IMG/VR virus record: IMGVR_UViG_3300036985_003045
Strand: one strand, 5' to 3'
Origin: a virus
Taxonomy: Duplodnaviria; Caudoviricetes
Length of the DNA: 64,000 nucleotides
Numbering within the stretch: position 1 is the first letter of the stretch; each line of letters opens with the position of its first letter. The notes under the pieces are model-generated. The model was not told the DNA's origin. It ran no database searches and saw nothing but the letters and a program-made list of their open reading frames with translations. Positions 20,586 through 23,582 of this stretch are shown here, in pieces. The translations under genes and the position numbers were made by a program.

Positions 20586-20613
20586 ATTATATCACAAATA
20601 TACCTTATGTCAA
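20586..20613 (-). promoter_or_regulatory. Early promoter TTGACA-16-TATAAT (extended -10)
   Basis: TTGACA taaggtatatttgtga TATAAT, overlapped by an 11-bp inverted repeat. Confidence 0.75.
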
Positions 20614-20616
20614 GTG

Positions 20617-21030
20617 TTACTTACACCAAGATTCTTTCTTATCACCAAAATAATGTCTAGCAAAACCTTGTTTAATTAATTCTTCTGATAGGCTTTTATC
20701 ATCTAGCAATACATCACCTAATACTCTACCACCATACTTATCCCATTTTACTAATGAAACTTGTTGTTTCTTGCTATCTGCAACCAATTTCTTAGTAAAT
20801 TTTGAAGCAGCTTCACCTAATGCAGCTTCTTCTGGACACATTGCTCTATGTCCTTTTTCTGGGGTATCTACACCTAATACTCTAATTGATAAAACAGGTT
20901 TTAATGGTTTTGGTAAAAAGGGTGCTTGAAATTCTACAGTATCACCATCAATAACTCGTGTGATAGGAAAATCATAAATTTCAGCATGTGCAGTAGTTGA
21001 TAGTAATAATAATAACAATAATTTATTCAT
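20617..21030 (-). CDS. Thermonuclease (SNase-like) with signal peptide
   Basis: RVIDGDT, IRVLGVDTPE, DKYGGRVLG, GFARHYFG; likely start MNKLLLL. Confidence 0.85.
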   Translation of the reverse strand: MNKLLLLLLLSTTAHAEIYDFPITRVIDGDTVEFQAPFLPKPLKPVLSIRVLGVDTPEKGHRAMCPEEAALGEAASKFTKKLVADSKKQQVSLVKWDKYGGRVLGDVLLDDKSLSEELIKQGFARHYFGDKKESWCK

Positions 21031-21031
21031 A

Positions 21032-21733
21032 TTATGCAATAGCTCCAGCAACTCTACCTGCAGCAGAACCTAATCTTTCAGCACCAGAACTAACTGCACT
21101 TTTAAATTTATTCTTTACATTGGTAATACCAGTATCAATTTTGCTTGCTAACCCTGCAGTATCCGCTGATTGCTTCCTCATTGCACCTTGTGCTTCACGA
21201 GAAGATTGTGCTGCTGCTTGAGTTGCTCCTTTTGATTTTTCATAACGGCTAGATAATCCACCAACTTTTGCAGATTGAAATCCTGCTTTAATTTTACCAG
21301 ATAAACTACCTGTATCACTTGCAGGAACACTCTTAGCAACACCCAATTTACTACCTAATTTCTTTTGATTAATCAAAGATTTTTGATATTGACTAAGCAT
21401 TTGTTTTCCTTTTTGTTTAGCCAGTAAATTTTTAATACCATGTGCAGCACCAGCAACGAAAGTTCCAACAGATTCATCAAGCATCATTTCAATAATTTCA
21501 TCGAACAATTCTTGATTAACATCAATACCAGTTAATGCTTGATATGCAGATTCTTTTAATGATAAATGTTGATAATTTTCCATGAAATAATCCATTAGAA
21601 TAGATGTCATATAGGCATCATCTTCAGTCATTTCATATGATTCATCCATATCATAATGGTCATTAGAAATTGATTCTACTAATGCAATAAATAATTCTTC
21701 TGATTGTAATTTTTGTGCTTCGGTTAAATACAT
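21032..21733 (-). CDS. Hypothetical protein, possible head core/internal protein
   Basis: Acidic N-half with repeated LxE/xES motifs; Lys/Ala/Ser/Gly-rich basic C-half. Confidence 0.5.
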   Translation of the reverse strand: MYLTEAQKLQSEELFIALVESISNDHYDMDESYEMTEDDAYMTSILMDYFMENYQHLSLKESAYQALTGIDVNQELFDEIIEMMLDESVGTFVAGAAHGIKNLLAKQKGKQMLSQYQKSLINQKKLGSKLGVAKSVPASDTGSLSGKIKAGFQSAKVGGLSSRYEKSKGATQAAAQSSREAQGAMRKQSADTAGLASKIDTGITNVKNKFKSAVSSGAERLGSAAGRVAGAIA

Positions 21734-21750: not shown

Positions 21751-22269
21751 TTAATCTTTTTCTATATGGGGAACAATTTCTTTATCCCAATAATTCTTAA
21801 ATCCAGTTTTTCTGTTTATATCGGTAGTTGTTTGTCCAGTTTTATCTGCAACTTTTTTGATTGCTGTTTGATACTTTTTTGTTCTATCTTTACTTTTTTC
21901 TACATCAAAACCTTTATGGTCATCCCCTACCATTGTCCATTTTTGGTGATAAATTTGTGGACTAGCAGTAGTTTTTCTAAATTTATGTTCCCCTGTTGAA
22001 GTTACCTTTACAGAATCACCAACAGTGGGTTCATGAGCAGTATTCCAATCAGGAGAATGTAAAAATGAAACATCATTAGTTTTAGCATTATGTTTAACTA
22101 TAGTATGATGAAAATCTGGATAATTCTTTTTCACCACTGCTAATGCTTTATCATGTACATCTTTTGGTATATTGGTTTTATCAACATAATCCTTATGTAC
22201 ATAAAAATCTGATGGAGTTTTCTTTCCTATTTTCCTTTCTTCAGATAAAAAGGTTTTAAATGATATCAT
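21751..22269 (-). CDS. Putative internal head protein with a domain resembling the accessory part of phosphorothioation-associated MTases
   Basis: N-term MISFKTFLSEE; KK.P..FYVH, SFL.SPDW...HEP, PQIYHQK. Confidence 0.5.
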   Translation of the reverse strand: MISFKTFLSEERKIGKKTPSDFYVHKDYVDKTNIPKDVHDKALAVVKKNYPDFHHTIVKHNAKTNDVSFLHSPDWNTAHEPTVGDSVKVTSTGEHKFRKTTASPQIYHQKWTMVGDDHKGFDVEKSKDRTKKYQTAIKKVADKTGQTTTDINRKTGFKNYWDKEIVPHIEKD

Positions 22270-22697
22270 TTTATTATTTTCCTAGTTACAATTCCATGAG
22301 CAACATCTTTTTCACTAGACCATCTTTTAGCATGTGTTATAGGATACATATATTTAACACCACCTGGTTTAATATCAAATGCACTATCTTTTGGAACTAA
22401 GTGTTGATGTTCTCTTGCTCTAAAATCATGTTCGCCTACAACAATGGGTTCACCAATCTTACAATGTCCTATTGCTTTAGCTTTACCTTCACCAGTTCTA
22501 ACAATACCTACTTTCTTACCCACTAAATGTTTAAGTGAATGAGAATTTCTAGTTTCATATTGTTTTTTACCATCAACTATTGCATCAGCATAAGAAATAC
22601 CAGCTTTCTTGTCACTACGAACATTCAAACCCATTTTAATATCATCTGATTCAATGATAAAGCATTCTTCAGATATAAATTCTTTAAATGATATCAT
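22266..22697 (-). CDS. Putative internal head protein, ASCH/PUA-like domain
   Basis: N-term MISFKEFISEE; YADAIVDGKKQYETR, G.AKAIG. Confidence 0.7.
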   Translation of the reverse strand: MISFKEFISEECFIIESDDIKMGLNVRSDKKAGISYADAIVDGKKQYETRNSHSLKHLVGKKVGIVRTGEGKAKAIGHCKIGEPIVVGEHDFRAREHQHLVPKDSAFDIKPGGVKYMYPITHAKRWSSEKDVAHGIVTRKIIK

Positions 22698-23266
22698 TAT
22701 CTTTGTCTAATGATAATATGACCACTTTTATGGGTTACTTCGTGTGTACTATCTGGAAATACTTTCTTAATCTCAGGCATATATGTATCAGTTTTTCTGT
22801 GGTTTTGCCAAGAACTACCTCTACCCTTATCATTTTTGGTTTGTCTTTCATTACCGGATTTATCACCTTCATATGTAGTTATATGAGCAATACCAGTTTT
22901 AGGTTTCATAAATGATTTAACTTGATGTAATGCTGCTATTCTATGTTCAGGTTCTTTAATTACATTTAGAACATTATGCATACCAGTATAATCAGCATTT
23001 CCTTCAGCATTTTTCTTTACATCCTTGTTGTGCCCTTCTGTTCTATTAAACGGGTCGTGAACATGTAGTTTTGCCCCTTTAATGCTACTTTCTACATGTT
23101 CTTTACCAGCATCATATTTACCGCCACCATTTTCAACATTTACACTATTTGGTTTTATTAAACCTTTAGAAACTGCATGTCTTATGCCAGCAGATACTTG
23201 ATTTAATGAGGTATCTGCACTGGTATGTTCTTGAGCTTCTTCTAAATATTGTTTAAATGATATCAT
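22697..23266 (-). CDS. Putative internal head protein, SAM-dependent methyltransferase fold
   Basis: N-term MISFKQYLEEA; ENGGGKY (motif I-like), HDPF, ADY...NVLNVI. Confidence 0.65.
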   Translation of the reverse strand: MISFKQYLEEAQEHTSADTSLNQVSAGIRHAVSKGLIKPNSVNVENGGGKYDAGKEHVESSIKGAKLHVHDPFNRTEGHNKDVKKNAEGNADYTGMHNVLNVIKEPEHRIAALHQVKSFMKPKTGIAHITTYEGDKSGNERQTKNDKGRGSSWQNHRKTDTYMPEIKKVFPDSTHEVTHKSGHIIIRQR

Positions 23267-23541
23267 TGGATATCCTTGAACTTTCCATATTGAACCTCGT
23301 GGTCAAATTTAATAGCATCTTTTGCTTTATCTATATTCTTAAATTTGCGTTGACCCAACTTGCCACCAGTTACATAAAAATTATTACCCCCATGACGACT
23401 TATTTGCGGGGTTTCTGTGGTCCATTTATGTCCACTGAGTGGGCTTTTATGTGATGTTGTATTAGTTTCTTTTGAAATGTGGCAATGCATAAACTTACCA
23501 CATCCATCAGATTCGTTAATAAATTCTTTAAATAATAACAT
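23263..23541 (-). CDS. Putative internal head protein, unknown function
   Basis: N-term MLLFKEFINES; basic, His-rich. Confidence 0.55.
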   Translation of the reverse strand: MLLFKEFINESDGCGKFMHCHISKETNTTSHKSPLSGHKWTTETPQISRHGGNNFYVTGGKLGQRKFKNIDKAKDAIKFDHEVQYGKFKDIQ

Positions 23542-23574
23542 GAAATATCCTAATAAATTTTACTAATATATATC

Positions 23575-23582
23575 TATTTATA
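23575..23582 (-). promoter_or_regulatory. T4-type late promoter for the internal-protein cassette
   Basis: Exact TATAAATA overlapping the phoH stop codon. Confidence 0.75.

Follow-up and report, generated by a model that had tools for sequence, protein, structure and literature searches.

Why should four adjacent genes of one phage encode proteins that begin almost identically and then continue into bodies with nothing in common? The question is raised by a cassette of four short open reading frames (ORFs), which we term P1 to P4, in a T4-like myophage of approximately 30% G+C represented by the virus record IMGVR_UViG_3300036985_003045 (Duplodnaviria; Caudoviricetes). The analysis covered a stretch of 64,000 nucleotides (nt) of this virus, referred to throughout as the window. 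We consider that the cassette is probably an internal-protein locus of the T4 type, the cargo of which would be packaged, trimmed and injected. It is marked by a shared N-terminal leader, the geometry of a late promoter motif, the folds of its products, the fusion and adjacency of P2- and P4-like genes in other genomes, and polymorphism of the cassette itself.

The four ORFs follow one another on the minus strand (Table 1). Because stop and start codons overlap at each of the three junctions (ATGA, TAATG and ATGA, as read from the sequence), P1 to P4 are taken to be translationally coupled. An exact copy of the T4-type late promoter motif TATAAATA precedes P1. Beyond their starts, no pairwise similarity was found between the bodies of the four proteins, the best blastp comparison giving E = 0.21. 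The predicted mature proteins are uniformly basic, with isoelectric points (pI) of 9.4-9.5 and masses of 9-20 kDa. An earlier interpretation of the same DNA, made without database searches and called here the sequence-only reading, had posited four coupled ORFs with these starts, an exact late promoter ahead of them, mutually unrelated bodies and a leader resembling the T4 capsid-targeting sequence. The first three are borne out by the data above, and the fourth by the residues described below.

Table 1. Positions of the features discussed; coordinates are those of the window unless another locus is named.
Feature	Coordinates	Strand	Remarks
P1, 92 amino acids (aa), start MLLFKEFINES	23263-23541	-	ORF
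P2, 189 aa, start MISFKQYLEEA	22697-23266	-	ORF
P3, 143 aa, start MISFKEFISEE	22266-22697	-	ORF
P4, 172 aa, start MISFKTFLSEE	21751-22269	-	ORF
T4-type late promoter motif TATAAATA, exact	23575-23582	-	34 nt 5' of the P1 ATG; overlaps the phoH stop
P1 leader-coding segment	23512-23541	-	L003 and X10 deletion junction falls here
P2 leader-coding repeat (ATGATATCATTTAAA...)	23237-23266	-	L003 45-73 matches both the P2 repeat and the P1 leader
P3 leader-coding repeat	22668-22697	-	L003 623-656 matches both the P3 repeat and the P4 leader
P4 leader-coding repeat	22240-22269	-	blastn comparison with L003
P4 homologues ending in a leader-like peptide	L007:8001-8528, L008:2389-2898		tails ..KSFKTFISEIYK and ..GKTFKDLLEQINYEK
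233-aa ORF just downstream of P4	21032-21733	-	no leader; matches no family
SNase-type nuclease with apparent signal peptide	20617-21051	-	overlaps the end of the 233-aa ORF
Perfect sigma-70 promoter (TTGACA, 16 nt, TG-TATAAT)	20586-20613	-	after the SNase gene

All four leaders conform to M-[IL]-[SL]-F-K-x-[FY]-[IL]-x-E, with F at position 4, F or Y at position 7, I or L at position 8 and E at position 10. For T4 IPIII, the ten N-terminal residues (MKTYQEFIAE type) are enough for entry into the prohead core; targeting is determined by positions 4 and 7, and processing by gp21 depends on positions 8 and 10 (PMC9026906, PMC3012670). The leader keeps all four of these experimentally mapped positions of the T4 capsid-targeting sequence in every ORF of the cassette. 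A strict form of the pattern, M-x2-[FY]-x2-[FY]-[IL]-x-E, was matched by 4 of the 1425 Met positions in the six frames of the window, and these are exactly the starts of P1 to P4. A shared capsid-targeting sequence ahead of diverse injected proteins is established for T-even phages (PMC3012670, PMC2839356, PMC9026906).

The leader was followed further among homologues of the cargo. Forty-one leader-bearing homologues of P2 yielded the consensus M-[KLI]-[TSN]-[FY]-[KR]-[QEN]-[FY]-[IL]-x-E, to be compared with MKTYQEFIAE of T4, and several of their leaders are nearly the T4 sequence (MKTYKEFIRE, for example). The leader is present in 45 of 66 close P2 homologues versus 1 of 51 distant ones, many of which begin directly at a conserved QE.TSADTS motif near the predicted mature end. 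In the P3 family it heads two members and is missing from four. Leader residues are also of low confidence in the AlphaFold models of P2 and P4. The leader thus behaves as a modular add-on.

The placement of the promoter motif was compared with that of its other copies. Seven of the 15 copies of TATAAATA in the window lie 19-47 nt 5' of ORF starts. Elsewhere in the window the motif stands 32 nt before a gp48-like baseplate gene, 31 nt before a head-closure gene and 47 nt before a tail-fibre gene, such that a spacing of 31-34 nt is common to the gp48-like gene, the head-closure gene and the cassette. The copy before the cassette is kept in the sibling contig L003. This geometry suggests that the cassette would be transcribed late, like the head genes.

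Runs of leader-bearing ORFs with other bodies were found in related uncultured phages. Locus L006 contains six, following phoH as in the window, and a 704-aa LRV_2-repeat protein in this locus (L006:3561-5675) starts with VKTFKEYLRES. Four consecutive leader-bearing ORFs occur in L010; just upstream of them (L010:4550-6004) is a 484-aa Zeta-toxin/AAA_33-like protein with the start MNFFDFLNS, which fails the leader pattern. Further leader-bearing proteins are a 512-aa member of the GP88 family (L011:4414-5952) and a 286-aa ADP-ribosyltransferase (L007:8525-9385; PF03496, 27.9 bits, over the cut-off), the obvious analogue of which is T4 Alt, itself packaged and injected. In Vibrio phages of the KVP40 group, a leader-bearing methyltransferase-like protein (phi-Grn1_0181) is encoded beside gp24 and gp55.

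Close relatives of the window differ in the content of the cassette. The four-gene form is found in the window and in X4, a contig from another study. A lake-metagenome contig, X10, has a three-gene form without P1 only, in which the joint (23259->23535) falls inside the leader. The two-gene form of L003, an IMG/VR contig with 95-97% nt identity to the window, consists of the promoter, P2 and P4 only. P2, P3 and P4 share their first 15 nt (ATGATATCATTTAAA) exactly, and the blastn segments aligning L003 with the window overlap exactly in the leader-coding repeats; the P2 leader of L003 is a P1/P2 chimera, MLSFKQ. All deletion junctions in L003 and X10 thus lie inside a leader-coding repeat. Given that four-, three- and two-gene forms coexist and are joined at leaders, we conclude that the leader DNA is the point of exchange: near-identical leader-coding DNA doubles as a recombination site at which genes enter and leave the cassette whole. 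The core cargo is formed by P2 and P4, with P1 and P3 as accessory genes. The two-gene form had been considered as the commonest, with a word share of ~0.63 in many lake metagenomes; this was rejected, since sequence divergence explains the share and X4 has all four genes. We also observed in X4 an 81-nt patch near the 5' end of P2 (window 23166-23248) that is of equal length but diverged, between near-identical flanks; it is a local mosaic beside the leader.

We sought to characterise the core cargo by homology and structure prediction. P2 has 118 homologues, with the conserved motifs QEHTSADTSLNQ, GGGKY, DPFNR, NVLNVIKE, YEGD and SWQ. The invariants of the family are Q12, S16, T19, GGG47-49, D71-P-F-N-R, N98-V-L-N-V-I-K-E, Y-E-G and W-Q, and GGG47-49 and D71 are invariant across 40 P2-family sequences. 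The AlphaFold model of P2 (predicted local distance difference test, pLDDT, 87.6) adopts the class I S-adenosylmethionine (SAM)-methyltransferase fold. Its top matches in the PDB and AlphaFold DB are all methyltransferases, the leading PDB matches being Trm9, MnmM, CypM and small-molecule enzymes (E ~1e-5; template modelling (TM) score ~0.5). The features of class I are present, namely a Rossmann-like fold, a motif I rich in glycine and, at the end of strand 2, an acidic residue; DPFN71-74 there occupies the motif II position. Thus, P2 is modelled as a class I SAM-methyltransferase-like enzyme, and it may bind SAM.

The P4 family is about 170 aa in length and carries the conserved motifs YVHKDY, SFLHSPDW, EP, QIYHQKW and GDDxxGFDV. 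P4 was modelled with a pLDDT of 94.7 as an alpha+beta part that leads into a helical bundle. Pfam contains no model for this domain, no significant relative was found among solved structures (Foldseek, VIA-align), and a feature search of the ESM Atlas with P4 returned nothing. When 1.84 billion cluster representatives were searched with a profile, 1058 relatives were identified (742 with E <= 1e-10); some stand alone, some belong to mid-sized fusions and others form part of proteins of 1000-5700 aa. Fold matches in AlphaFold DB and the ESM Atlas (TM 0.7-0.8) fall on the non-methyltransferase part of proteins named 'DNA phosphorothioation-associated putative methyltransferase', and on a viral cluster of 348 aa with the same range of TM scores.

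In phages, the P4 domain is met in a late-gene setting: the P4 homologues of L004 are placed between gp14 and gp15. KVP40.0371 also carries the domain; this protein was examined and set aside, as it is without a P2-like part. In another myophage, a 673-aa P4-domain protein (L015:9277-11298) lies between a gp13-type neck gene and the tail sheath gene and gives a faint match to RNA 2'-phosphotransferase (PTS_2-RNA). Among the representatives, giant P4-domain proteins of 3000-5700 aa turn up often, and they resemble polyvalent proteins; a Bacillota metagenome-assembled genome, for instance, contains a 4485-aa ORF (L018:50-13507) with the P4 domain at residues 3318-3472.

Are P2 and P4 parts of one system? 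In the window they are two genes with P3 between them. P2-like and P4-like genes adjoin in L003, L004, L010 and L011, and the P4 homologues of L006, L007 and L008 each adjoin a member of a second Methyltransf_23-like subfamily (hhalign E = 8e-11). Furthermore, both profiles match the same fused proteins, at E-values of 1e-39 to 1e-41: in P0178 the P2 profile covers residues 111-281 (E = 2e-39) and the P4 profile residues 304-456, and in P0186 they cover residues 122-300 (E = 9e-41) and 319-465, respectively. Seven AlphaFold DB entries were common to the fold searches with P2 and P4, the two domains lying side by side in either order. Fusion together with adjacency makes this a Rosetta-stone case, which points to a joint function for P2 and P4.

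The sequence-only reading had pointed in this connection to the family of DNA-phosphorothioation-associated putative methyltransferases, TIGR04096, and proposed that the second and fourth bodies resemble its two domain types, here split between genes. P4 matches model positions 319-447 with E = 3.9e-7 and 29.2 bits, compared with a curated cut-off of 150 bits. No match to the model was found with P2. Neither is therefore a member of TIGR04096, for which the 150-bit cut-off applies to the whole protein. Three longer P4-domain proteins, however, are true members (502-567 bits). In one of these, in L072, the match of the P4 profile (residues 545-694, E = 1e-41) falls in a C-terminal extension past the part covered by the model, and the P2 profile gives a weak match to the methyltransferase part (residues 68-140, E = 9.5e-4). 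The likeness of the fourth body to the family is accordingly upheld, as is the notion of a split, P2 and P4 mapping onto the same fused proteins and AlphaFold DB entries. The methyltransferase fold suspected for the second body was likewise recovered by both the model and the fold matches. As a TIGR04096 type, by contrast, P2 fails against the model itself and retains only the weak resemblance to the methyltransferase part.

The phage unit and TIGR04096 thus have in common a methyltransferase-like domain and a P4-type domain, and P2 shares the NVLNVI(K/E)(E/D) region. They differ in that the phage unit is divided between two genes, both with a capsid-targeting leader of their own, and in that P2 represents another methyltransferase subfamily, marked by the QEHTSADTSLNQ motif. 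TIGR04096 is moreover a bacterial and uncharacterised family, under whose cut-off the phage proteins score far. A literature search on the accession and the full product name returned passing mentions only and no functional study. The P4-type domain seems to occur twice in true TIGR04096 proteins: the copy within the model is divergent, and the C-terminal extension is a closer copy.

To place the P4 domain in bacterial genomes, we scanned one genome per species. The domain occurred in 67 loci, mostly of Planctomycetota. Stand-alone P4-domain genes of 160-210 aa are common in that phylum (Pirellulaceae and relatives; L021, L045 and L063 are examples). Of ten bacterial P4-domain genomes, three contain dndC, in each case 12-14 kb from the P4-domain gene (verified to be on the same contig in one), and seven have no dndC. 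From this we conclude that the link to dnd is real but not obligatory.

The accessory proteins were examined in the same manner. P3 had been described as ASCH-like, which holds at the level of the family: all seven members match Pfam ASCH (PF04266, a PUA-like fold), the best with E = 6.7e-6, and two homologues of P3 carry a precomputed PF04266 assignment. P3 on its own stays below the gathering cut-off of 21.2 bits, scoring 14.4 bits (E = 0.065). Its weak solved relative is TTHA0113 (E = 0.15). The gene is inserted between P2 and P4, and it is missing from L003. We know of no ASCH protein described with a capsid-targeting leader. No match to P3 was found by tblastn against deposited phages. 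A freshwater metatranscriptome contig of 222 nt, X20, matches P3 at 22286-22507 with one mismatch and offers weak support for its expression, carry-over of DNA being possible. The predicted mature P1 (9.3 kDa, pI 9.5) has a Cys/His-rich start, DGCGKFMHCH. P1 was assigned to no family; no homologue was found in the phage collection or related loci, and none of use in the ESM Atlas. It is missing from two natural variants, L003 and X10.

Taken as a T4-type internal-protein locus, the cassette would operate as follows. One late promoter would drive four translationally coupled genes of a hypervariable locus. A leader of about ten residues would dock each product on the prohead scaffolding core, and the prohead protease would cut after Glu10 of (I/L)-x-E. 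The basic mature proteins would then stay with the packaged DNA and be ejected into the next host cell ahead of any phage gene expression. The core cargo so delivered would be a split methyltransferase with its P4 partner domain, whose fused counterparts include the bacterial TIGR04096-type proteins near dnd genes. Once inside, P2 and P4 might act together, in early takeover or in counter-defence.

Several results weigh against this reading. In a window as AT-rich as this one the number of TATAAATA copies is not above chance, 15 being seen versus 19 expected; the significance of the motif would appear to reside in its position, not its count. The prohead protease and scaffold genes were not found in the 64-kb window, nor did PHROG scans of 30 of its ORFs reveal any head-core gene. 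Two P4 homologues, in L007 and L008, are without an N-terminal leader, and hence the P4 domain is not strictly leader-dependent. Both end instead in leader-like peptides, which may be a recombination relic of the leader of the next gene or a targeting peptide relocated to the C-terminus. The DNA amino-methyltransferase motif IV, (D/N/S)PP(Y/F/W), was not found in the P2 family alignment, and P2 is therefore not a typical DNA amino-methyltransferase; with its nearest solved folds among tRNA and small-molecule methyltransferases, DNA is not an obvious substrate. The prediction of a P2+P4 complex scored 0.00 and counts neither for nor against their pairing.

On what might the packaged enzymes act? 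One answer, which we regard as possible if somewhat doubtful, is that P2+P4 modifies host RNA, protein or a small molecule (compare the action of T4 Alt on RNA polymerase), for takeover or to neutralise a defence signal, with P3 directed at RNA or modified nucleotides. Trm9, MnmM, CypM and small-molecule methyltransferases, as the fold neighbours of P2, would be in keeping with such a role. So would the Alt-like ADP-ribosyltransferase and the Zeta-toxin-like kinase of related cassettes, both of host-directed enzyme types, and the faint RNA 2'-phosphotransferase match of the L015 protein. Conversely, fold matches at a TM of ~0.5 are generic for class I methyltransferases, and no substrate-specific motif was recognised.

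An action on DNA in cis is, in our view, unlikely. Here the packaged P2+P4 would resemble DarB, a head-borne DNA methyltransferase that marks or shields incoming DNA, against restriction or a phosphorothioate-linked defence. The DarB type of bacteriophage P1 combines LPD36, an N6-adenine methyltransferase and a superfamily 2 (SF2) helicase in one protein (PMC5512222). Family scans of the four cassette proteins found no helicase or LPD domain, leaving them outside the DarB type. The comparison with the Dar and polyvalent proteins is apt insofar as these too are virion-borne enzymes delivered with DNA and acting before expression, and the P4 domain also occurs in giant proteins of 1000-5700 aa. 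The cargo here, however, consists of separate small leader-tagged proteins and not of one multidomain polypeptide, with no LPD36, N6-adenine methyltransferase or SF2 helicase. Moreover, P2 is without motif IV and without a helicase partner, the solved structures that it matches best are methyltransferases of tRNA, peptides and small molecules, dndC is absent from seven of the ten bacterial P4-domain genomes, and an HRDC likeness was within noise.

A bolder proposal would have P2+P4 as a virion-delivered two-component enzyme, the phage counterpart of TIGR04096, which methylates either the incoming DNA or a defence component or signal and so neutralises phosphorothioate-linked or related immunity. 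P3 would handle a modified nucleotide, and the leader would serve as a plug-in address and recombination site for swapping injected counter-defence enzymes. We offer this as speculation of low probability.

Quite improbable is the notion that the shared N-terminus has no targeting role and is a by-product of duplication or gene conversion, an element of translation initiation or coupling, or a recombination module, on proteins that are ordinary cytoplasmic late proteins: the 15 nt identical in three of the four genes, the leader repeats that are demonstrably sites of deletion and insertion, and the start codons overlapping preceding stops would all agree with it, but diverged homologues keep the protein-level pattern at exactly the four T4-critical positions while the free positions vary (PMC9026906), the leader is found ahead of unrelated bodies in phages with bodies of only 54-70% identity, and leader-less distant homologues start near the predicted cleavage point.

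The reading as an internal-protein locus also gains from direct comparison with T4. Both systems have a leader of about ten residues in which positions 4 and 7 are aromatic, position 8 is I or L and position 10 is Glu; both have small basic mature proteins with unrelated bodies and a locus whose content varies between close relatives; and a related cassette carries an Alt-like ADP-ribosyltransferase. The leader here begins MISFK, whereas that of T4 begins MKTYQ, and in place of small inhibitors the proteins carried are recognisable enzyme domains (methyltransferase-like, ASCH and the one that also occurs in TIGR04096-type proteins). For T-even internal-protein loci, the reported elements are based on early promoters (PMC2839356); the recombination junctions of the present cassette differ in lying in the leader-coding DNA itself. 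Three things are new here: the cargo, the occurrence in a distant phage group, and gene exchange directly observed within the leader.

T4 internal-protein delivery would thereby appear to reach freshwater T4-like phages that are only distantly related, its cargo including real enzymes in addition to small inhibitors. Exchange at leader-coding DNA provides a simple mechanism for the fast turnover of injected proteins. If packaging holds true, the leader supplies a sequence rule for finding injected effectors in the genomes of uncultured phages. The cassette additionally gives a testable handle on the function of the P4 domain, with its more than 1000 cluster representatives, and of TIGR04096.

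The wider setting of the cassette is that of a T4-like genome. The window encodes a gp32-type single-stranded-DNA-binding protein, a gp59-type helicase loader, DNA ligase, PhoH and a CobS-like protein, together with baseplate proteins of the gp5, gp6 and gp48 types, a head-closure protein and tail fibres. No close DNA relative was found by megablast against deposited phages, and the public runs in which the stretch occurs come from nine studies of lake, freshwater and sediment metagenomes. The host phage belongs to a distant, AT-rich, freshwater T4-like group.

No minus-strand terminator was predicted from 24500 to 20300; the transcript therefore probably continues beyond P4 through a 233-aa ORF and an SNase-like nuclease gene. 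The 233-aa protein is acidic in its N-terminal half and rich in Lys, Ser, Gly and Ala in its C-terminal half, and contains the [LI]xE motif five times, including LTE at residues 3-5 and LVE at residues 18-20. It may represent a further protein of the head core or of the internal class. In L011, an SNase gene likewise adjoins the cassette.

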